Assembly (NCBI RefSeq): GCF_003334785.1
Contig: NZ_QOWV01000016.1
DNA from: Escherichia coli
GTDB lineage: Bacteria > Pseudomonadota > Gammaproteobacteria > Enterobacterales > Enterobacteriaceae
Reading direction: 5' to 3' (one strand)
DNA length: 64,000 nt
Positions 1 through 62,276 of the stretch are shown piece after piece; position 1 is the first letter of the stretch; each line of letters starts with the position of its first letter. The notes under the pieces are model-generated. The model was not told where the DNA came from. It searched no databases and was given only the letters and a program-made list of their open reading frames with translations. Made by a program: the position numbers and the translations under genes.

Positions 1-230
1 GTGCGGGAGAGGATGAACGGCAGCGGGCCGGGCAGGGCGATGTCGGTTTCACCGGGAAGGACCTTTGCACCGAGCAGGGGATTGACCGGATGGCCGGACG
101 TCACTCCGCCGGGGCACACCGAACAGGCCACGCCGGTGGGGGCACCAATGCGCACCCCGGCTGAACCCTGAACAATGCTACCGCCATACTGCGTCATGTC
201 GCCCTGACGCGCTGCCGGTTTTCCGCTCAT
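1..230 (-). CDS. rhsA: Rhs-family protein, N-terminal ~76 codons only (gene continues beyond window start)
   Basis: Reverse complement from ATG at 230..228 translates MSGKPAARQGDMTQYGGSIVQGSAGVRIGAPTGVACSVCPGG..., the conserved Rhs N-terminus; divergent from yibF as in rhsA synteny (recalled). Confidence 0.8.
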   Translation of the reverse strand, partial: MSGKPAARQGDMTQYGGSIVQGSAGVRIGAPTGVACSVCPGGVTSGHPVNPLLGAKVLPGETDIALPGPLPFILSR

Positions 231-457
231 TTCTCATCCTTGTTTTATCGGGTTATTTGTCTGCTGACAGGCGAAACCCTACAGATTTATAAGAAAGCCT
301 GAAGTGAGATATCCATCAGAGTGAAATAATTAGGAAAATATTTATATCACCATGATAAATATGTGATTTATTTGGAAGTAACAAACCATCAACATTTTCT
401 GCCCTTTTTCCCATCACCAGGCCATACTGATATTTTTCCTCGCACAAAGGACTCGGC

Positions 458-1066
458 ATGAAACTCGTCGGTAGCTACACCAGCCCGTTTGTACGCAAAC
501 TTTCTATTCTGTTGTTAGAAAAGGGCATAACTTTCGAATTTATTAATGAACTGCCCTATAACGCGGACAACGGCGTGGCGCAATTTAACCCGTTAGGAAA
601 AGTGCCGGTGCTGGTGACCGAAGAGGGCGAATGCTGGTTTGATTCGCCGATCATCGCTGAATATATTGAATTAATGAATGTCGCTCCGGCGATGTTGCCG
701 CGCGATCCGCTGGAGTCGTTGCGGGTGCGCAAAATTGAGGCACTGGCGGATGGCATTATGGATGCCGGGCTGGTATCGGTGCGTGAACAGGCGCGTCCAG
801 CGGCGCAGCAGTCTGAAGATGAATTGTTACGCCAGCGGGAGAAAATCAACCGCAGTCTGGATGTGCTGGAAGGATATCTGGTCGATGGCACACTCAAAAC
901 CGATACGGTCAATCTGGCGACTATCGCCATTGCCTGTGCCGTCGGATATCTCAATTTCCGCCGCGTTGCGCCAGGTTGGTGTGTCGACCGCCCACACTTA
1001 GTCAAACTGGTCGAAAACCTGTTTAGCCGCGAAAGTTTTGCTCGCACCGAACCGCCAAAGGCTTGA
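458..1066 (+). CDS. yibF: glutathione S-transferase-like protein
   Basis: 202-aa ORF in track, [28 protein letters not shown]...; GST N-terminal fold signature; position upstream of selA. Confidence 0.9.
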
Positions 1067-1163
1067 TGCGCGATATGTCCTCCTGACCCATCTCACGTTA
1101 CAATCCGTGGTTATGTTAAACGCCCTTCTCCGTGTGAGAGGGCCTTGATCAGCCAGGTTTCCT

Positions 1164-2555
1164 ATGACAACCGAAACGCGTTCCCTCTATAGTCAACTTC
1201 CGGCTATTGATCGCTTATTGCGCGATAGCTCCTTCCTTTCTTTGCGTGATACTTATGGTCACACCCGCGTGGTGGAATTGTTGCGTCAGATGCTCGACGA
1301 AGCGCGAGAAGTGATTCGTGGCAGCCAGACGCTGCCTGCGTGGTGTGAAAACTGGGCGCAAGAAGTCGATGCCCGGTTGACGAAAGAAGCGCAGAGCGCG
1401 CTGCGTCCGGTGATCAACCTGACGGGAACCGTGCTGCATACCAACCTTGGGCGAGCTTTACAGGCGGAAGCCGCGGTGGAAGCCGTTGCGCAGGCTATGC
1501 GTTCGCCAGTGACCCTCGAGTATGATCTGGACGACGCCGGACGCGGACATCGCGATCGGGCGCTGGCGCAGCTGCTGTGCCGTATTACGGGGGCGGAAGA
1601 TGCCTGTATCGTCAATAACAATGCGGCGGCGGTGTTATTGATGTTGGCGGCCACTGCCAGCGGAAAAGAGGTGGTGGTATCTCGCGGCGAACTGGTGGAG
1701 ATTGGCGGCGCGTTTCGTATTCCCGATGTTATGCGTCAGGCAGGCTGCACCCTACACGAAGTAGGGACCACCAACCGCACGCACGCGAATGATTATCGTC
1801 AGGCGGTGAATGAAAATACCGCACTGTTGATGAAAGTACATACCAGTAACTACAGCATTCAGGGGTTCACCAAAGCGATAGATGAAGCGGAACTGGTGGC
1901 GCTCGGCAAAGAGCTGGATGTTCCCGTAGTGACTGATTTAGGCAGTGGCTCGCTGGTCGATCTTAGCCAGTACGGTTTGCCGAAAGAGCCAATGCCGCAG
2001 GAGTTGATTGCGGCGGGCGTCAGTCTGGTGAGTTTCTCCGGCGACAAGTTGTTAGGCGGGCCGCAGGCAGGAATTATTGTTGGTAAAAAAGAGATGATCG
2101 CCCGCCTGCAAAGCCACCCGCTGAAGCGTGCATTACGCGCGGATAAAATGACCCTCGCGGCGCTGGAAGCCACGTTGCGTCTTTATTTACACCCTGAAGC
2201 TCTGAGTGAAAAATTACCGACCCTGCGCCTGCTTACCCGCAGCGCAGAGGTCATTCAAATCCAGGCACAACGTTTACAGGCCCCCCTTGCCGCACATTAC
2301 GGCGCGGAGTTTGCGGTACAGGTTATGCCATGTCTTTCGCAGATTGGCAGTGGTTCGCTGCCGGTTGATCGCCTGCCGAGCGCGGCATTAACGTTTACAC
2401 CCCATGATGGACGCGGTAGCCACCTTGAGTCATTAGCCGCCCGCTGGCGTGAATTGCCAGTGCCGGTGATTGGTCGTATTTATGACGGACGATTGTGGCT
2501 GGATTTACGCTGCCTTGAAGATGAGCAACGGTTTTTGGAGATGTTGTTGAAATGA
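1164..2555 (+). CDS. selA: L-seryl-tRNA(Sec) selenium transferase
   Basis: 463-aa ORF recognised as SelA; stop overlaps selB start (ATGA at 2552..2555). Confidence 0.95.
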
Positions 2556-4396
2556 TTATTGCGACTGCCGGACACGTTGACCACGGCAAAACAACCTTAT
2601 TGCAGGCGATTACTGGCGTAAATGCTGACCGTCTGCCGGAAGAAAAAAAGCGCGGCATGACCATCGATCTCGGCTATGCCTACTGGCCGCAGCCGGATGG
2701 TCGCGTGCCTGGTTTTATCGACGTTCCCGGTCATGAAAAGTTTCTTTCCAACATGCTGGCGGGCGTTGGTGGTATCGATCACGCGCTGTTGGTGGTGGCG
2801 TGCGATGACGGCGTGATGGCACAGACCCGTGAGCATCTGGCGATTTTGCAGCTGACCGGTAACCCGATGCTGACAGTGGCGCTGACCAAAGCCGATCGCG
2901 TGGACGAAGCGCGTGTTGATGAGGTTGAACGCCAGGTAAAGGAGGTTCTGCGGGAATACGGTTTTGCTGAGGCAAAACTGTTTATCACCGCAGCAACCGA
3001 AGGTCGGGGAATGGATGCCCTGCGCGAGCATCTGCTTCAGTTGCCGGAACGCGAGCACGCCAGCCAACATAGTTTCCGCCTCGCGATTGACCGCGCATTT
3101 ACCGTAAAAGGTGCCGGGCTGGTCGTCACCGGTACGGCGTTAAGCGGGGAAGTGAAGGTAGGCGATTCACTCTGGCTGACTGGTGTAAATAAACCGATGC
3201 GTGTACGTGCGCTGCATGCGCAAAACCAGCCAACAGAAACCGCCAATGCCGGGCAGCGTATCGCGCTTAACATCGCGGGTGATGCGGAAAAAGAGCAGAT
3301 TAACCGTGGCGACTGGCTGCTTGCCGATGTGCCGCCAGAGCCGTTCACACGGGTGATTGTCGAGCTTCAAACCCATACACCGCTGACCCAGTGGCAGCCG
3401 CTGCATATTCACCACGCCGCCAGCCACGTCACGGGACGCGTTTCACTGCTGGAAGATAACCTTGCTGAACTGGTCTTCGACACCCCGTTATGGCTGGCAG
3501 ATAACGACCGCCTGGTATTGCGCGATATCTCTGCCCGCAACACGCTGGCCGGAGCGCGCGTCGTGATGCTTAACCCGCCGCGTCGCGGTAAACGTAAGCC
3601 GGAATATCTGCAATGGCTGGCGTCTCTTGCACGGGCGCAGAGCGATGCCGATGCGTTATCTGTTCATCTGGAACGCGGCGCGGTTAACCTTGCGGATTTC
3701 GCCTGGGCGCGCCAGCTCAACGGCGAAGGGATGCGCGAATTGCTGCAACAGCCTGGTTATATTCAGGCTGGTTATAGCTTGTTGAATGCGCCGGTTGCCG
3801 CCCGCTGGCAGCGGAAAATTCTCGACACATTAGCGACTTATCATGAGCAACATCGCGATGAACCTGGCCCTGGGCGCGAACGTCTGCGACGTATGGCGTT
3901 GCCAATGGAAGATGAAGCGCTGGTACTGTTGCTGATTGAAAAGATGCGCGAAAGCGGCGACATCCACAGCCATCACGGCTGGCTGCATCTGCCAGATCAC
4001 AAAGCGGGCTTCAGCGAAGAGCAGCAGGCCATCTGGCAAAAAGCAGAGCCACTGTTTGGTGACGAACCGTGGTGGGTGCGTGACCTGGCAAAAGAGACGG
4101 GAACCGACGAGCAGGCAATGCGCCTGACTCTACGCCAGGCGGCGCAGCAAGGAATAATTACCGCGATCGTTAAAGATCGTTATTACCGTAACGATCGGAT
4201 TGTCGAGTTTGCCAATATGATCCGCGATCTCGATCAGGAGTGTGGTTCAACCTGCGCGGTGGATTTCCGCGATCGCTTAGGCGTAGGCCGAAAGCTGGCA
4301 ATTCAGATTCTGGAATATTTTGACCGCATTGGCTTTACGCGTCGTCGTGGAAATGATCATTTATTGCGCGACGCATTATTATTTCCGGAAAAATAA
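2552..4396 (+). CDS. selB: selenocysteine-specific translation elongation factor
   Basis: 614-aa ORF with N-terminal GTPase motifs [23 protein letters not shown]; translationally coupled to selA. Confidence 0.95.
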
Positions 4397-4451
4397 GGAA
4401 ATGATTAATTAAGTTTTAAAATAAATTAATACAAAATTCTTATGAATTTAA

Positions 4452-4490
4452 AAAAAGCACATTGTTTAATGAATACAATGTGCTTTTTAT
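4452..4490 (+). terminator. rho-independent terminator downstream of selAB
   Basis: Stem agcacattg (4456..4464) / caatgtgct (4476..4484) followed by TTTTT; lies in a very AT-rich 190-bp spacer. Confidence 0.7.
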
Positions 4491-4585
4491 TAGATTAATT
4501 TTGATAATCAATAATACTGATCATATTTTCGAATGAAAATCCTCAGTAAGCTGCCCGCCCTTTTTTACACTTTCAGGAGTGTGTT

Positions 4586-5737
4586 ATGGCAGCTTCAACG
4601 TTCTTTATTCCTTCTGTGAATGTCATCGGCGCTGATTCATTGACTGATGCAATGAATATGATGGCAGATTATGGATTTACCCGTACCTTAATTGTCACTG
4701 ACAATATGTTAACGAAATTAGGTATGGCGGGCGATGTGCAAAAAGCACTGGAAGAACGCAATATTTTTAGCGTTATTTATGATGGCACCCAACCTAACCC
4801 CACCACGGAAAACGTCGCCGCAGGTTTGAAATTACTTAAAGAGAATAATTGCGATAGCGTGATCTCCTTAGGCGGTGGTTCTCCACACGACTGCGCAAAA
4901 GGTATTGCGCTGGTGGCAGCCAATGGCGGCGATATTCGCGATTACGAAGGCGTTGACCGCTCTGCAAAACCGCAGCTGCCGATGATCGCCATCAATACCA
5001 CGGCGGGTACGGCCTCTGAAATGACCCGTTTCTGCATCATCACTGACGAAGCGCGTCATATCAAAATGGCGATTGTTGATAAACATGTCACTCCGCTGCT
5101 TTCTGTCAATGACTCCTCTCTGATGATTGGTATGCCGAAGTCACTGACCGCCGCAACGGGTATGGATGCCTTAACGCACGCTATCGAAGCATATGTTTCT
5201 ATTGCCGCCACGCCGATCACTGACGCTTGTGCACTGAAAGCCGTGACCATGATTGCCGAAAACCTGCCGTTAGCCGTTGAAGATGGCAGTAATGCGAAAG
5301 CGCGTGAAGCAATGGCTTATGCCCAGTTCCTCGCCGGTATGGCGTTCAATAATGCTTCTCTGGGTTATGTTCATGCGATGGCGCACCAGCTGGGCGGTTT
5401 CTACAACCTGCCACACGGTGTATGTAACGCCGTTTTGCTGCCGCACGTTCAGGTATTCAACAGCAAAGTCGCCGCTGCACGTCTGCGTGACTGTGCCGCT
5501 GCAATGGGCGTGAACGTGACAGGTAAAAACGACGCGGAAGGTGCTGAAGCCTGCATTAACGCCATCCGTGAACTGGCGAAGAAAGTGGATATCCCGGCAG
5601 GCCTACGCGACCTGAACGTGAAAGAAGAAGATTTCGCGGTATTGGCGACTAATGCCCTGAAAGATGCCTGTGGCTTTACTAACCCGATCCAGGCAACTCA
5701 CGAAGAAATTGTGGCGATTTATCGCGCAGCGATGTAA
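4586..5737 (+). CDS. yiaY: iron-containing (group III) alcohol dehydrogenase
   Basis: 383-aa ORF; SD aggag at 4571..4575; Fe-ADH family sequence recognised. Confidence 0.9.
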
Positions 5738-5901
5738 TCATCATTTCCACAACGGCTGGCAAATTGTCAGCCGCTTTTTCAACTATCTCTGTAACCCTTG
5801 CCCGTAAATTCGTGATAGCTGTCGTAAAGCTGTTACCGACTGGCGAAGATTTCGCCAGTCACGTCTACCCTTGTTATACCTCACACCGCAAGGAGACGAT
5901 C

Positions 5902-7440
5902 ATGACCAATAATCCCCCTTCAGCACAGATTAAGCCCGGCGAGTATGGTTTCCCCCTCAAGTTAAAAGCCCGCTATGACAACTTTATTGGCGGCGAATGG
6001 GTAGCCCCTGCCGACGGCGAGTATTACCAGAATCTGACGCCGGTGACCGGGCAGCTGCTGTGCGAAGTGGCGTCTTCGGGCAAACGAGACATCGATCTGG
6101 CGCTGGATGCTGCGCACAAAGTGAAAGATAAATGGGCGCACACCTCGGTGCAGGATCGTGCGGCGATTCTGTTTAAGATTGCCGATCGAATGGAACAAAA
6201 CCTCGAGCTGTTAGCGACAGCTGAAACCTGGGATAACGGCAAACCCATTCGCGAAACCAGTGCTGCGGATGTACCGCTGGCGATTGACCATTTCCGCTAT
6301 TTCGCCTCGTGTATTCGGGCGCAGGAAGGTGGGATCAGTGAAGTTGATAGCGAAACCGTGGCCTATCATTTCCATGAACCGTTAGGCGTGGTGGGGCAGA
6401 TTATCCCGTGGAACTTCCCGCTGCTGATGGCGAGCTGGAAAATGGCTCCCGCGCTGGCGGCGGGCAACTGTGTGGTGCTGAAACCCGCACGTCTTACCCC
6501 GCTTTCTGTACTGCTGCTAATGGAAATTGTCGGTGATTTACTGCCGCCGGGCGTGGTGAACGTGGTCAATGGCGCAGGTGGGGTAATTGGCGAATATCTG
6601 GCGACCTCGAAACGCATCGCCAAAGTGGCGTTTACCGGCTCAACGGAAGTGGGCCAACAAATTATGCAATACGCAACGCAAAACATTATTCCGGTGACGC
6701 TGGAGTTGGGCGGTAAGTCGCCAAATATCTTCTTTGCTGATGTGATGGATGAAGAAGATGCCTTTTTCGATAAAGCGCTGGAAGGCTTTGCACTGTTTGC
6801 CTTTAACCAGGGCGAAGTTTGCACCTGTCCGAGTCGTGCTTTAGTGCAGGAATCTATCTACGAACGCTTTATGGAACGCGCCATCCGCCGTGTCGAAAGC
6901 ATTCGTAGCGGTAACCCGCTCGACAGCGTGACGCAAATGGGCGCGCAGGTTTCTCACGGGCAACTGGAAACCATCCTCAACTACATTGATATCGGTAAAA
7001 AAGAGGGCGCTGACGTGCTCACAGGCGGGCGGCGCAAGCTGCTGGAAGGTGAACTGAAAGACGGCTACTACCTCGAACCGACGATTCTGTTTGGTCAGAA
7101 CAATATGCGGGTGTTCCAGGAGGAGATTTTTGGCCCGGTGCTGGCGGTGACCACCTTCAAAACGATGGAAGAAGCGCTGGAGCTGGCGAACGATACGCAA
7201 TATGGCCTGGGCGCGGGCGTCTGGAGCCGCAACGGTAATCTGGCCTATAAGATGGGGCGCGGCATACAGGCTGGGCGCGTGTGGACCAACTGTTATCACG
7301 CTTACCCGGCACATGCGGCGTTTGGTGGCTACAAACAATCAGGTATCGGTCGCGAAACCCACAAGATGATGCTGGAGCATTACCAGCAAACCAAGTGCCT
7401 GCTGGTGAGCTACTCGGATAAACCGTTGGGGCTGTTCTGA
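5902..7440 (+). CDS. aldB: NADP-dependent aldehyde dehydrogenase B
   Basis: Track ORF starts at 5764, but the recognised AldB N-terminus [17 protein letters not shown] begins at ATG 5902, preceded by SD aggag 5891..5895; 512 codons. Confidence 0.9.
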
Positions 7441-21350: not shown

Positions 21351-21447
21351 GCCAGATGCGGCGTAAACGCCTTATCCGGCCTACAAATTCTTCCAAATTC
21401 AATATATTGCAGAAATCATGTAGGCCTGATAAGCGTAGCGCATCAGG
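21351..21447. repeat. REP/BIME palindromic units between ysaA and avtA
   Basis: gccagatgcggcgtaaacgccttatccggcctac ... gtaggcctgataagcgtagcgcatcaggc. Confidence 0.7.
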
Positions 21448-37093: not shown

Positions 37094-38005
37094 ATGCAAA
37101 AGTTTGATACCAGGACCTTCCAGGGCTTGATCCTGACCTTACAGGATTACTGGGCTCGCCAGGGCTGCACCATTGTTCAACCATTGGACATGGAAGTCGG
37201 CGCGGGAACCTCTCACCCAATGACCTGTCTGCGCGCGCTGGGGCCAGAACCGATGGCGGCTGCTTATGTTCAGCCTTCTCGTCGCCCGACCGATGGTCGC
37301 TACGGCGAAAACCCCAACCGTTTACAGCACTACTATCAGTTCCAGGTGGTCATTAAGCCATCGCCGGACAATATTCAGGAGCTGTACCTCGGTTCTCTGA
37401 AAGAGCTGGGCATGGACCCGACTATTCACGACATCCGTTTCGTGGAAGATAACTGGGAAAACCCGACGCTGGGTGCCTGGGGACTGGGCTGGGAAGTGTG
37501 GCTGAACGGCATGGAAGTGACGCAGTTCACTTACTTCCAGCAGGTTGGTGGTCTGGAGTGTAAACCGGTTACCGGCGAGATCACCTACGGTCTGGAACGT
37601 CTGGCCATGTACATTCAGGGCGTAGACAGCGTTTACGACCTGGTCTGGAGCGACGGCCCGCTGGGTAAAACCACCTACGGCGACGTGTTCCATCAGAACG
37701 AAGTGGAGCAGTCCACTTACAACTTCGAATACGCGGATGTGGACTTCCTGTTCACCTGCTTCGAGCAGTACGAGAAAGAAGCGCAGCAGCTGCTGGCGCT
37801 GGAAAATCCGCTGCCGCTGCCAGCCTACGAGCGTATTCTGAAAGCCGCCCACAGCTTCAACCTGCTGGATGCGCGTAAAGCCATCTCCGTCACCGAGCGT
37901 CAGCGCTACATTCTGCGCATTCGCACCCTGACCAAAGCAGTGGCAGAAGCATACTACGCTTCCCGTGAAGCCCTCGGCTTCCCGATGTGCAACAAAGATA
38001 AGTAA
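37094..38005 (+). CDS. glyQ: glycine-tRNA ligase alpha subunit
   Basis: 303-aa ORF recognised. Confidence 0.95.
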
Positions 38006-38014
38006 GAGGCGGCT

Positions 38015-40084
38015 ATGTCTGAGAAAACTTTTCTGGTGGAAATCGGCACTGAAGAGCTGCCACCAAAAGCACTGCGCAGCCTGGCTGAGTCCTTTGCTGC
38101 GAACTTTACTGCGGAGCTGGATAACGCTGGCCTCGCACACGGCACCGTTCAATGGTTTGCTGCTCCGCGTCGTCTGGCGCTGAAAGTAGCTAACCTGGCG
38201 GAAGCGCAACCGGATCGTGAAATCGAAAAACGCGGCCCGGCGATTGCCCAGGCGTTCGACGCTGAAGGCAAACCGAGCAAAGCGGCAGAAGGTTGGGCGC
38301 GTGGTTGCGGTATTACCGTTGACCAGGCTGAGCGTCTGACTACCGATAAAGGCGAATGGCTGCTGTATCGCGCCCATGTGAAGGGCGAAAGCACCGAAGC
38401 ACTGCTGCCGAATATGGTTGCGACTTCTCTGGCGAAACTGCCGATCCCGAAACTGATGCGTTGGGGCGCAAGCGACGTGCACTTCGTGCGTCCGGTGCAC
38501 ACCGTGACCCTGCTGCTGGGCGACAAAGTCATTCCGGCAACCATTCTGGGCATTCAGTCCGATCGCGTGATTCGCGGCCACCGCTTTATGGGCGAGCCGG
38601 AATTCACCATCGATAACGCCGATCAGTATCCGGAAATTCTGCGTGAGCGTGGGAAAGTCATCGCCGATTACGAAGAACGTAAGGCGAAGATTAAAGCCGA
38701 TGCCGAAGAAGCAGCGCGTAAGATTGGCGGTAACGCTGACTTAAGCGAAAGCCTGCTGGAAGAAGTGGCTTCGCTGGTGGAGTGGCCGGTCGTTCTGACC
38801 GCAAAATTCGAAGAGAAATTCCTCGCGGTGCCGGCTGAAGCGCTGGTTTACACCATGAAAGGTGACCAGAAATACTTCCCGGTGTATGCGAACGACGGCA
38901 AACTGCTGCCGAACTTTATCTTCGTTGCCAACATCGAATCGAAAGATCCGCAGCAGATTATCTCCGGTAACGAGAAAGTCGTTCGTCCGCGTCTGGCGGA
39001 TGCCGAGTTCTTCTTCAACACCGACCGTAAAAAACGTCTTGAAGATAACCTGCCGCGCCTGCAAACCGTGTTGTTCCAGCAACAGTTGGGGACGCTGCGC
39101 GACAAAACTGACCGCATCCAGGCGCTGGCTGGCTGGATTGCTGAACAGATTGGCGCTGACGTTAACCACGCTACCCGTGCGGGTCTGCTGTCTAAGTGCG
39201 ACCTGATGACCAACATGGTCTTCGAGTTCACCGACACCCAGGGCGTTATGGGGATGCACTATGCGCGTCACGATGGCGAAGCGGAAGATGTCGCGGTGGC
39301 GCTGAATGAGCAGTATCAGCCGCGTTTTGCTGGTGATGACCTGCCGTCCAACCCAGTAGCTTGTGCGCTGGCGATTGCTGACAAGATGGATACCCTGGCG
39401 GGTATCTTCGGTATCGGTCAGCATCCGAAAGGCGACAAAGACCCGTTTGCGCTGCGTCGTGCCGCGCTTGGCGTGCTGCGAATTATCGTTGAGAAGAACC
39501 TCAACCTTGATCTGCAAACGCTGACCGAAGAAGCGGTGCGTCTGTATGGCGATAAGCTGACTAATGCCAACGTAGTTGATGATGTTATCGACTTTATGCT
39601 CGGTCGCTTCCGCGCCTGGTATCAGGACGAAGGTTATACCGTTGACACCATCCAGGCGGTACTGGCGCGTCGTCCGACTCGTCCGGCTGATTTCGATGCC
39701 CGTATGAAAGCGGTATCGCATTTCCGTACCCTGGATGCAGCTGCTGCACTGGCGGCGGCGAACAAACGTGTATCTAACATTCTGGCGAAATCTGACGAAG
39801 TGCTGAGCGACCGCGTGAATGCCTCTACCCTGAAAGAGCCGGAAGAAATTAAACTGGCGATGCAGGTTGTGGTGCTACGTGACAAGCTGGAGCCGTACTT
39901 TACGGAAGGTCGTTACCAGGATGCGCTGGTCGAACTGGCTGAGCTGCGTGAACCGGTTGATGCTTTCTTCGATAAAGTGATGGTCATGGTTGATGACAAA
40001 GAATTGCGTATCAACCGTCTGACCATGCTGGAGAAACTGCGCGAACTGTTCCTGCGCGTTGCGGATATTTCGCTGTTGCAATAA
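38015..40084 (+). CDS. glyS: glycine-tRNA ligase beta subunit
   Basis: 689-aa ORF recognised; 9-bp gap from glyQ. Confidence 0.95.
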
Positions 40085-40101
40085 TAACGCCGTTATTAAA
40101 T

Positions 40102-40128: not shown

Positions 40129-40362
40129 TCGCTAAATAATACAGCAACCTTTAATAATCTTCTGCTGAATAAAGATTATCTCATATATTAATTTTATGAG
40201 ATTTTTTTAGGATTATATCAAGGAGAAGAAACAAACTTATTAAGCTAGAATAGCCACGGGTGCTTGAGACTGTTTGTCTCAGGTATTCACCGAAAGGCAG
40301 ACAGAGAAAAGCCCCACCTGACTATAAATCAAAGTTTGTACTGACCCCAAAAAGTTGGACAG

Positions 40363-41214
40363 TTAAACACGAGGCATATAGGTCTGATTCCGATATTCAA
40401 TTGGAGTCAGACCTTTTAATTTCAGGCTAATTCTTCTGCTGTTGTAGTATTCAATATATTCCGTAACAGCATCCTTCAGTTCGCTTATATTACTGAACTC
40501 ATCAAGATAAAAACACTCCGACTTTAAGGTTCCAAAGAAACACTCCACCACAGCATTATCCAGACAATTGCCTTTTCTGGACATGCTTTGTTTAATACCA
40601 TGTTCTTTAAGGATATTTTGATATCTTCTCATACGATACTGCCATCCCTGGTCAGAGTGCAGAACAGGATGCTCGTGAGGATTAAGCTTTTTGAATGCCT
40701 GATCGAGCATATTCTCAACCATGTTCATCACTGGTCTTTCCGAAAGGCTGTAAGAAATAACTTCGTTGTTGAAGAGATCTATTACTGGAGACAAATACAG
40801 CTTGCGCCCATTGACTGCAAATTCAGTAACATCGGTAACCCACTTCTCGTTTGGCCGCGTAGCCTTGAAATCTCTTTGGAGAACATTAGGGGCGGTTTGC
40901 CCTACCTCTCCTCTGTAAGAGCGGTATCGCTTGACCTTAATCGCTGCTTTAAGTGAGAGGGTTCCCATCAGGCGCTGAACAGCTTTATGGTTAATCTGTT
41001 TCCCTTCTCGATGAAGAGACAGCGTTACCCTACGGTATCCGTATCGGCCTCTATTCTCGTGATAAATCTCACTAATACGCTTTTTAACGTCCGCATACTT
41101 GTCAGGCTTGCTGAGAGCCTTTAGATGATAATAAAACGTACTGCGCGGTATCTCCGCAGCCCTGAGAAGCTCATCAAGAGGATAAAACTGCCTTAGCTCG
41201 TTGAGTACTTTCAC
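40363..41214 (-). CDS. insK: IS150 transposase OrfB (DDE catalytic domain)
   Basis: 283-aa ORF recognised. Confidence 0.9.
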
Positions 41215-41732
41215 TTTTTCGTGGGATGAGCTAAGGCTTTCAGCTTTTTTAGATACATAAGCCGCGTTTCAAGAAATCGAACTTGCCTTTCAAGATCCTC
41301 AATGCGTCGGTCTTTTGACAGCTCCAATGCTGATGCCGCTTTTTCTGGATCAACTGATATTGCAATGTTTCTTTTGGTGCCAATCTTGAGCGCGCGTAAA
41401 CCAGCTTCTCCGCGCTCTTCATAGACCTTCAGCCACCTGGCTACAGAACCACTACCAGCAAGCATAAAGTGAGCAGCAGCCTGATTAAGGGACATGTGCT
41501 GCTCGATCACAGCTTTCACGACCTTAATACGCAACTCTGGATCAGCACTAACGCCTTTAGGTTTGGGAATTAAACCTTTTTCTCCATGTTTTTCATAGAG
41601 GGCAACCCATGTCCTGACCTGGGTTCGGGGGACACCAAAACGTGCCGAGATGATCCTGTAACCATCATCAGTTGTGAAGTAGTGATTCACGACTTCAAGG
41701 CGCTTTTCAAAAGGGTATTTTGGCTTTGACAT
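41211..41732 (-). CDS. insJ: IS150 OrfA (HTH DNA-binding)
   Basis: 173-aa ORF; ends ...[14 protein letters not shown] with the A AAA AAG frameshift heptamer at complement(41244..41250). Confidence 0.9.
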   Translation of the reverse strand: MSKPKYPFEKRLEVVNHYFTTDDGYRIISARFGVPRTQVRTWVALYEKHGEKGLIPKPKGVSADPELRIKVVKAVIEQHMSLNQAAAHFMLAGSGSVARWLKVYEERGEAGLRALKIGTKRNIAISVDPEKAASALELSKDRRIEDLERQVRFLETRLMYLKKLKALAHPTKK

Positions 41733-41811
41733 ATTAGGGGCTATTCCATTTCATCGTCCAACAAAATGGGTGCAGTACATACTCGTTGGAAATCAACACA
41801 GGAGGCTGGGA

Positions 41812-41964
41812 ATGCCGCAGAAATATAGATTACTTTCTTTAATAGTGATTTGTTTCACGCTTTTATTTTTCACCTGGATGATAAGAGATTCACTGTGTGA
41901 ATTGCATATTAAACAGGAGAGTTATGAGCTGGCGGCGTTTTTAGCCTGCAAATTGAAAGAGTAA
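41812..41964 (+). CDS. hokA: Hok-family type I toxin peptide (50 aa)
   Basis: MPQKYRLLSLIVICFTLLFFTWMIRDSLCELHIKQESYELAAFLACKLKE from ATG 41812 with SD aggagg 41800..41805; the overlapping mok-like frame (track ORF from 41770) begins inside the IS150 end. Confidence 0.85.
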   Translation: MPQKYRLLSLIVICFTLLFFTWMIRDSLCELHIKQESYELAAFLACKLKE

Positions 41965-42093: not shown

Positions 42094-42123
42094 ATAAAAA
42101 AATCCCCGCCAAATGGCAGGGAT
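42094..42123 (-). terminator. rho-independent terminator of cspA
   Basis: On the minus strand, stem atccctgccatttggcggggat followed by a U7 run (plus-strand A-run 42095..42101). Confidence 0.8.
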
Positions 42124-42150
42124 CTTAGATTCTGTGCTTTTAAGCAGAGA

Positions 42151-42363
42151 TTACAGGCTGGTTACGTTACCAGCTGCCGGGCCTTTAGCGCCGCTTTCGA
42201 TGGTGAAGGACACTTTCTGACCTTCGTCCAGAGATTTGTAACCATCGTTCTGGATAGCAGAGAAGTGTACGAACACATCTTTAGAGCCATCGTCAGGAGT
42301 GATGAAGCCGAAGCCTTTGTCAGCGTTGAACCATTTTACGATACCAGCCATTTTACCGGACAT
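42151..42363 (-). CDS. cspA: major cold-shock protein
   Basis: [38 protein letters not shown]... 70 aa with RNP1/RNP2 motifs. Confidence 0.97.
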
Positions 42364-42505
42364 AGTGTATTACCTTTAATAATTAAGTGTGCCTTTCGGC
42401 GATATGGCGTGCTTTACAGATTTTGAAGCGTTAAAGGAATGTGCACTACGAGGGGTATCAACGATAACTCTTGAAGGGACTTGCCTTACTACACTGCTTT
42501 AATGG

Positions 42506-42559
42506 TCTGTACGTCAAACCGTTGATGTGCATTAAGCCACGCATTGGCGGGTGATGCAA
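42506..42559 (-). promoter_or_regulatory. cspA promoter (-35 TTGCAT, 17-bp spacer, -10 CTTAAT) and cold-box element at the start of the ~160-nt 5' UTR
   Basis: Minus-strand reading: ttgcat (complement 42554..42559), cttaat (complement 42531..42536), cold box tgacgtacaga (complement 42506..42516); AT-rich UP-like tract further upstream. Confidence 0.75.
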
Positions 42560-53719: not shown

Positions 53720-54053
<334 letters not shown>

Positions 54054-54055
54054 CG

Positions 54056-54140
54056 TAGGCCTGATAAGACGCGTCAGCGTCGCATCAGGCAAATGTGCCG
54101 GCCATTGTCGGATGCGGCGCGACCGCCTTATTCGACCTAC
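54056..54140. repeat. REP/BIME palindromic units
   Basis: gtaggcctgataagacgcgtcagcgtcgcatcaggc ... gccggccattgtcggatgcggcgcgaccgccttattcgacctac. Confidence 0.7.
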
Positions 54141-56341: not shown

Positions 56342-56450
56342 AGGCAAAAATGCCTGATGCGCTCCGCTTATCAGGCCTACGAAAATTCTGCAATGTATTG
56401 AATTTGCACGATTTTGTAGGCCGGATAAGGCGTTAACGCCGCATCCGGCA
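56342..56450. repeat. REP/BIME palindromic units between dppA and dppB
   Basis: gcctgatgcgctccgcttatcaggcctac ... gtaggccggataaggcgttaacgccgcatccggca. Confidence 0.7.
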
Positions 56451-62207: not shown

Positions 62208-62276
62208 GAGAGAAAACCCCCGCACGTTGCAGGTATGCACCTGACAACACCACGGGGGCTAATCTTGACTCTAGAC
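62208..62276 (-). ncRNA. rdlD: candidate Rdl-type antisense RNA for ldrD
   Basis: Minus strand reads gtctagagtcaagattagcccccgtggtgttgtcaggtgcatacctgcaacgtgcgggggttttctct: long GC-rich hairpin (cccccg...cggggg) plus U-tract, 50 to 115 nt upstream of ldrD; boundaries approximate. Confidence 0.5.

Follow-up and report, generated by a model that had tools for sequence, protein, structure and literature searches.

Where does an Rhs element end and the ordinary chromosome begin, and how much of the toxin that it encodes, and of the switch that might turn it on, can be read from its promoter-proximal end? These questions are raised by the first 457 bp of a 64,000-nucleotide stretch of Escherichia coli DNA (contig NZ_QOWV01000016.1 of assembly GCF_003334785.1; "the window" below is this whole stretch), in which the initial annotation saw the start of a minus-strand Rhs gene in the first 230 bp and a 227-bp spacer with divergent promoters in front of yibF, and for which it placed the variable toxin tip and immunity gene outside the window, beyond position 1. 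We are highly confident that positions 1-420 are the promoter-proximal end of an RhsA element, with a leader that carries an RcsB-type box, that positions 421-457 are chromosomal backbone, and that the toxin tip lies past position 1.

The Rhs gene begins with a minus-strand ATG at 230-228 and its frame is open to the window edge, which gives 76 codons plus 2 bases. The encoded peptide, MSGKPAARQGDMTQYGG...PLPFILSR, that is, MSGKPAARQGDMTQYGGSIVQGSAGVRIGAPTGVACSVCPGGVTSGHPVNPLLGAKVLPGETDIALPGPLPFILSR, aligns with the beginning of the NCBIfam model NF041261 RHS_core, at its positions 1-76 (E=2.1e-45, 155 bits). This "RHS element core protein" model has 1261 positions and a curated whole-protein cutoff of 2000 bits; full-length proteins of relatives that are identical over the 76 codons score 2647 and 2644 bits against it, and carry TIGR01643 YD repeats and the TIGR03696 Rhs-associated core. 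Window DNA 1-1066 is 100% identical to that of K-12 derivatives annotated as rhsA/yibF, and the 230 nt of the rhsA start are 98.3, 97.0 and 82.6% identical to the K-12 paralogues rhsB, rhsC and rhsD, respectively. Every one of the 5,426 complete E. coli genomes has matches to parts of window 1-6000, many of them at 100%, and the median number of matching places is 3 per genome. Judged by these scores the match to an Rhs N-terminus is far beyond chance, and they bear out the earlier claims that the window opens inside an Rhs element and that the minus strand of 1-230 encodes its conserved N-terminus.

The gene order, with rhsA leftwards and yibF, selA, selB, yiaY and aldB rightwards, is that of the 3.76-Mb region of K-12 in reverse orientation (yibF scores 408 bits against the NF007682 glutathione S-transferase model, cutoff 181). 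The first 76 residues are identical to those of the RhsA element of K-12 (rhsA b3593, yibA, yibJ and yibG) known from the Hill laboratory, for which the same yibF/yibH insertion site is given (PMC2935791). The locus is the ordinary, textbook RhsA of K-12-like E. coli, already described, and the window holds its invariant gene end. The strain is of phylogroup A and K-12-like but is not K-12, K-12 derivatives being missing among the best 60 matches to window 1-25000. A small difference was seen at the start of the gene, where positions 228-236 are GAGAAATG in the window and in K-12 rhsA and GAGCAGATG in O157 rhsA, 45E rhsA and all rhsC copies, so that the Shine-Dalgarno-to-ATG spacing of rhsA is one base shorter in the window. 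The features discussed here are collected in Table 1.

Table 1. Features at the left end of the window, with the evidence on which each assignment rests
Feature	Position	Strand	Evidence
rhsA 5' end, codons 1-76 plus 2 bases of codon 77	1..230	-	Translation, RHS_core, K-12 identity; GC 67%
Start of DUF6531 N-terminal cage plug, residues 46-76, cut by window edge	3..95	-	Pfam PF20148
Predicted N-terminal autoproteolysis site between H47 and P48	87..92	-	Tse5/TseI alignment
Putative linker/anchor segment with Cys36 and Cys39, residues 30-47	90..143	-	Analogy to Tse5-NT 30-47
Single PAAR-like repeat SGKPAARQGDMTQYGGSIVQGSAGVRIG, residues 2-29	144..227	-	Alignment to PAAR spike proteins
Element AT-rich leader/promoter region, GC 35%	231..420	-	Missing from Rhs-negative genomes
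115-nt leader block in common with rhsC leader	233..347	-	Alignments; second place per genome, query 74-188
rhsA Shine-Dalgarno AAGGA, 6 nt before ATG	237..241	-	Sequence
Candidate activator-dependent core promoter, implied transcription start near 279	286..315	-	Relaxed scan, 9/12
RcsB-type box TAAATATTTTCCTA, core TTTTCCTA at 338->331	331..344	-	RcsAB consensus TaAGaatatTCctA, 11/14
Backbone, last 37 bp of ancestral yibH-yibF intergenic region	421..457	+	Identical in ST95-32 and EFF60
yibF Shine-Dalgarno AAGGA	447-451	+	Sequence, within backbone 421..457
yibF, glutathione S-transferase-like, right-hand neighbour outside element	458..1066	+	NF007682, RefSeq annotation

The right edge of the element was located by comparison with genomes that lack it. 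The whole 1-1066 stretch is present in 3737 of the 5426 complete E. coli genomes (~69%) and the element is missing in about 31%; the leader at 231-420 is found at a coverage of at least 80% in 3740 genomes, and 17 of 19 partial matches in a spread sample begin at window position 421. In the Rhs-negative strains ST95-32 and EFF60 the genes yibI, yibH, yibF, selA and selB are co-directional, with a gap of 70 bp between yibH and yibF. Base-by-base comparison with these two strains puts the left junction one base past the yibH stop codon; the empty site carries a 32-bp filler, ACTTGTATCACCTGTGTTTTGCGCGAGCCTGA, instead of the element, and identity with the window restarts exactly at 421 (GCCATACTGATATTTTTCC...). 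Since homology to the empty sites starts at 421, the Rhs element ends at 420/421, and this boundary is supported by the change in GC content from 67% (1-230) through 35% (231-420) to 49% (421-457), the whole window having 51%. The inserted DNA in K-12 is 8,249 bp long, and an account by Feulner from 1990 is said to agree with an element of this length and a 32-bp filler. The final 420 bp of the Rhs element lie in the window, and the spacer consists of 190 bp of island DNA and 37 bp of backbone. The extent originally given for the spacer, 227 bp at 231-457, is exact, but it is not a plain intergenic region, since 190 of its 227 bp are Rhs-element DNA.

The locus has the properties of an accessory island as the Hill laboratory used the idea, namely presence or absence between strains with a defined junction and a GC-rich core with AT-rich flanks; in this composition the window matches the K-12 RhsA element (Jackson et al. 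2009, PMC2935791). For annotation, this means that the boundary between mobile or accessory DNA and the chromosome is to be drawn at 420/421 rather than at the gene start. The yibH/yibF junction is the site of more than one island (loci L005, L006 and L007): in strain EC18 it holds an S6-peptidase autotransporter together with a fimbrial operon, and the homology of EC18 to the window begins only at 458, while most Rhs-negative genomes have the 32-bp filler. Farther to the right, a gene for a Fic family protein lies between yiaY and aldB in ST95-32 (L005 14448-15743) and EC18 (L007 14411-15706). It does not occupy the yiaY-aldB position in the K-12-like relatives 300709 and CFSAN061772, and the flanks of ST95-32 and EC18 are not K-12-like.

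What, then, do the 190 bp of island DNA in front of rhsA contain? The 115-nt block upstream of the ATG (347-233), which rhsA has in common with rhsC, is present as a second copy in most leader-carrying genomes, and six rhsA and rhsC leaders taken from diverse strains hardly vary from ATAAATATTTTCCTAATT up to the ATG. The rhsB leader is otherwise unrelated, yet CTAAATATATTCCTAA is kept in it at a similar distance from the rhsB ATG. In this conserved stretch lies a box that agrees with 11 of the 14 positions of the RcsAB consensus TaAGaatatTCctA in rhsA and with 12 of them in rhsB; in shuffles of the AT-rich spacer a match of 11/14 arises in 5% of cases. The wwTTCykA core has one occurrence in the spacer, on the rhsA strand, where 0.06 are expected, and it stands at -108, -109 and -96 relative to the start codons of rhsA, rhsC and rhsB, respectively. 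The box is invariant in the six rhsA/rhsC leaders and is present upstream of rhsB too; because the rhsA and rhsC leaders are homologous, the box that they have in common is not independent evidence, and additional weight comes from rhsB alone.

In the work of Salscheider et al. 2014 (PMC3950696) rhsA and rhsB are among the putative targets of BglJ-RcsB, with sites predicted by FIMO; the prediction rests on an rcsB-dependent microarray response to BglJ. The likeness of the rhsA leader to BglJ-RcsB/RcsAB-regulated promoters (PMC3950696) consists of the single wwTTCykA core and the 11/14 consensus match; binding and activation at rhsA are predictions in that paper, and the box in the window was matched to the consensus, not to the published site coordinates. 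We infer that the leader box is an RcsB-type activator site, in line with the BglJ-RcsB prediction for rhsA and rhsB. A candidate core promoter downstream of it, found by a relaxed scan, consists of a -35 hexamer TGGATA (315-310), an 18 nt spacer and a -10 hexamer TATAAA (291-286); across the leaders the -10 hexamer is invariant and the -35 hexamer variable. A transcription start at the position implied by this promoter would put the centre of the box near -58. In annotation the spacer should be treated as largely island DNA that carries a conserved box of the activator type, rather than as a pair of backbone promoters.

The same 227 bp can be read in other ways. Had the spacer been an ordinary backbone intergenic region with a constitutive promoter for rhsA and another, back to back with it, for yibF, one might expect what is in fact seen of the two genes, which are divergent and each have a good Shine-Dalgarno sequence, and of the relaxed scans, which find promoter-like hexamers on both strands. 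This arrangement is nevertheless rather unlikely, since most of the spacer is absent from Rhs-negative genomes (above), a strict consensus sigma-70 promoter and terminator scan of 231-457 found nothing, and a genomic SELEX study of sigma-70 holoenzyme, which places promoters elsewhere in the RhsA element (in the yibA-yibJ, yibJ-yibG and yibV-yibU spacers) and upstream of rhsD, makes no mention of yibF, rhsA or the spacer between them. Divergent promoters in the yibF-rhsA spacer are thus hypothetical. The silence of the SELEX study also weighs against a different reading, that the conserved ATATAAATATTTTCC is the -10 region of rhsA (an extended -10, TGATATAAA, at 349->341, with a transcription start near 334) and not an activator site. 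The block is kept at rhsA, rhsC and rhsB, the TATAAA at 346->341 has TGA before it in rhsA, and ATCACA-15-TATAAA scores 9/12 in the relaxed scan; the spacing is, however, 15 nt, the TG is missing in the rhsC and rhsB leaders, the -35 hexamer is not conserved, and conservation runs through TTCCTAA, which resembles the RcsB half-site and not a -10 element. We consider this reading unlikely, and prefer an RcsB-type activator site with the core promoter farther downstream.

The promoter of yibF is a separate matter. In Rhs-positive strains 8 kb of opposite-strand genes lie between yibH and yibF, and because the RhsA insertion has separated yibF from yibIH, the yibF promoter must sit in 421-457 or in island DNA. 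The relaxed scan gives two candidates, one that spans the junction (TTCCCA-17-TATTTT, 408-436) and another at 264-293 (CTGACA-18-TATAAG). It is highly doubtful that yibF is driven from an element promoter (231-420), with the RcsB-type box in common with rhsA, or else that the unseen tip is an undescribed toxin; if the former were true, a housekeeping-type glutathione S-transferase gene would be co-regulated with a toxin gene, solely in Rhs-positive strains.

Several other candidate features of this region were rejected. A riboswitch or structured leader is not indicated by the folding of the 116-nt leader (z=+0.43) or by Rfam, which has no match at E<=1 in window 1-1300. Two small ORFs in the spacer, of 47 aa (316-459, minus strand) and 32 aa (363-461, plus strand), were judged spurious; both span the junction between element and backbone, so neither is possible in Rhs-negative strains. 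An 8-bp palindrome (338-345/355-362) is of a kind expected in DNA of 27-35% GC, and its outer arm is not kept in rhsC. Finally, a sigma-factor SELEX peak at K-12 position 3764054 is inside rhsA past the window, and so is irrelevant to the spacer.

Several parts can be told apart in the 76 codons of rhsA in the window. Canonical PAAR proteins form a three-repeat cone. Residues 2-29 of RhsA align to the last repeat of PAAR proteins (9rce_c, E=9e-4; 4jiv_D, 0.011; also 4jiw_D and 8gra_J) and have the literal PAAR and the GD motif of canonical spikes such as VCA0105 (4jiv) and c1882 (4jiw). Those spikes have the complete domain (PF05488), whereas in the window part of RhsA one repeat was detected and the family scores are below threshold: the Pfam PAAR_motif PF05488 gives E=0.018 and 0.66, and NCBIfam NF033420 T6SS_PAAR_dom gives the RhsA N-terminus 16.3 bits against a cutoff of 124. 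A complete PAAR domain was not found in RhsA 1-76, where the alignment is confined to residues 2-29 and in every case falls on the final repeat. With one repeat and sub-threshold family scores, we call the segment "PAAR-like" and not a full PAAR domain.

What follows the repeat was interpreted with the aid of Tse5 (PA2684 of P. aeruginosa, 8cp6). The first 200 residues of the identical K-12 RhsA match the Tse5 shell chain 8cp6_B over residues 48-170 (E=2.4e-18), and the first residue of that chain (PVNPMLGSK) aligns to RhsA P48, where RhsA 48-56 is PVNPLLGAK. Tse5 is cut between K47 and P48. The N-terminal piece of 47 residues is described as a PAAR-like domain required for secretion, of which residues 30-47 anchor inside the cage, these last 18 residues being held there by the DUF6531 plug (PMC10684867). 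TseI is cut directly before a conserved PVSMVTGEELL signature (PMC7170923). RhsA has, in P48-VNPLLGAK, a Pro-Val signature at the start of the cage that aligns to the mapped cleavage site, and we predict from this alignment that it carries an N-terminal self-cleavage site between H47 and P48. By analogy with Tse5, RhsA residues 30-47 would be the anchor segment, although the N-terminal piece of Tse5 has no sequence match to RhsA residues 1-47. RhsA residues 46-76 match positions 1-30 of 74 of the DUF6531 model PF20148 with E=7.2e-6, which makes this segment a member of that family; its role as a plug is taken from the Tse5 structure paper (PMC10684867). The layout of the two proteins is the same, a PAAR-like piece of ~47 residues, a cut before PVNPxLG at 48 and a DUF6531 plug, but residue 47 is Lys in Tse5 and His in RhsA, and the toxin tips differ. 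The annotation of the 76 codons should thus include a PAAR-like repeat and a probable N-terminal self-cleavage site.

These parts suggest how the whole might work. In the general Rhs model a PAAR-type N-terminal piece mounts the protein on the VgrG spike, a cage encloses the C-terminal toxin, which is freed by an internal aspartyl protease, and a downstream immunity protein shields the producer (PMC10684867, PMC7170923, PMC6730261). RhsA is a polymorphic toxin on a YD-repeat cage; its single PAAR-like repeat would dock it on the VgrG spike of a type VI secretion system (T6SS), and after the repeat come the putative anchor, the predicted cut between H47 and P48 and then the DUF6531 plug, by which the cage is shut. 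BglJ-RcsB, or another activator of the RcsB family, may switch rhsA on through the leader box; as the leader has a conserved box of the RcsB type and a core promoter that looks weak, the gene is probably silent under standard conditions. The tip past position 1 would be Ntox34 with YibA, or a yibJ-type tip with YibG that arose by recombination with an orphan, as in relatives.

Delivery is less easily accounted for. No vgrG, eagR or T6SS genes adjoin rhsA on the yibF side, or across the element in relatives. To our knowledge, strains of the K-12 lineage are without a T6SS. The lack of an adjacent vgrG or eagR, together with the lack of a T6SS in K-12-like strains, makes delivery of RhsA doubtful in this strain, and rhsA is probably cryptic unless both an activator and a secretion system are available. 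Tse5, in contrast, is delivered with VgrG1c by an active T6SS. Having no adjacent vgrG or eagR, rhsA fits the neighbourless PAAR-Rhs toxins (Rhs-Nb) of Ma et al. 2017, as these are summarised in PMC6730261.

An Rhs polymorphic toxin is recognised by a variable C-terminal toxin past the PxxxxDPxGL motif and by a cognate immunity gene behind it, and the sequences of relatives agree with the initial annotation in placing the variable tip and the immunity genes past position 1. Which tip is there cannot be told from the window: strains that are 100% identical over 1-6000 carry rhsA alleles of 1377, 1409 or 522 aa, and NCTC9100, CPF6, VG48B2 and MB10, whose match scores to the window are nearly equal (within about 11 bits, few mismatches), have different Rhs tips. 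Since tips differ among equally close relatives, neither the toxin tip nor the immunity gene nor the orphan tips can be inferred. K-12, 300709, VG48B2 and MB10 have a 1377-aa RhsA that ends in Ntox34 (E=1.5e-43), and behind this type of rhsA come yibA, the orphan Rhs fragment yibJ, yibG and then another orphan, which has a frameshifted Imm57 gene; 1,757 genomes carry the Ntox34-yibA module complete. In NCTC9100 and CPF6 RhsA has 1409 aa and a tip that matches the K-12 yibJ orphan at 161/162 residues (L004 9995-14224 and L008 228-4457), with yibG directly after the yibJ-type tip and the Ntox34-yibA module lost, as would be expected if the main gene had recombined with the orphan downstream of it. 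Neither a Pfam domain nor a PDB sequence match was found for the yibJ-type tip. The tip of the present strain may thus differ from that of the K-12 RhsA element in being a yibJ-type fusion, as in NCTC9100 and CPF6, instead of Ntox34 with YibA.

The third allele raises the further question of whether the gene that these 76 codons begin is truncated or internally deleted, so that its protein is non-functional or shortened. In CFSAN061772, which is 100% identical to the window over 1-25000, a 522-aa in-frame rhsA joins residue ~103 to the last ~420 residues (L002 12662-14230) and lacks the greater part of the YD-repeat cage; BL21-type strains have a similar annotation, some records have a "DUF6531 domain-containing protein" at the site, and MB10 has an IS5 in the orphan region. 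This exact deletion junction is, however, found in at most 19 of the 5426 genomes, 23 of the best 25 matches (all 100% over 1-6000) have an Rhs core or RhsA name at this locus, and four of the five closest relatives inspected have genes of 1377 or 1409 aa. We therefore regard a shortened gene in the source strain as improbable.

A few features elsewhere in the window were recorded in passing. The glyQ-glyS genes lie at about 37100-40100 (coordinates carried over from the NCTC9100 annotation); duplication of glyS by unequal crossover between rhsA and rhsB is the origin of the name Rhs, "rearrangement hot spot" (PMC2935791). At 40258-40397 and about 40360-41960 an IS150 copy stands between a match to the sok antisense RNA and hokA, and the type I toxin-antitoxin locus hokA/sok thus appears to be split by IS150, as in K-12-like strains. 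Rfam matches at gathering level are the cspA 5'-UTR thermoregulator (42096-42523), tRNA-Pro(CGG) followed by an RtT repeat RNA (53720-53964), naRNA4 (54058-54137) and the rdlD antitoxin beside ldrD (62211-62276). The Rfam small RNA family ES036 (CssrF) has two short matches on opposite strands, at 21385-21427 and 56373-56415, which look like copies of a small repeated element.
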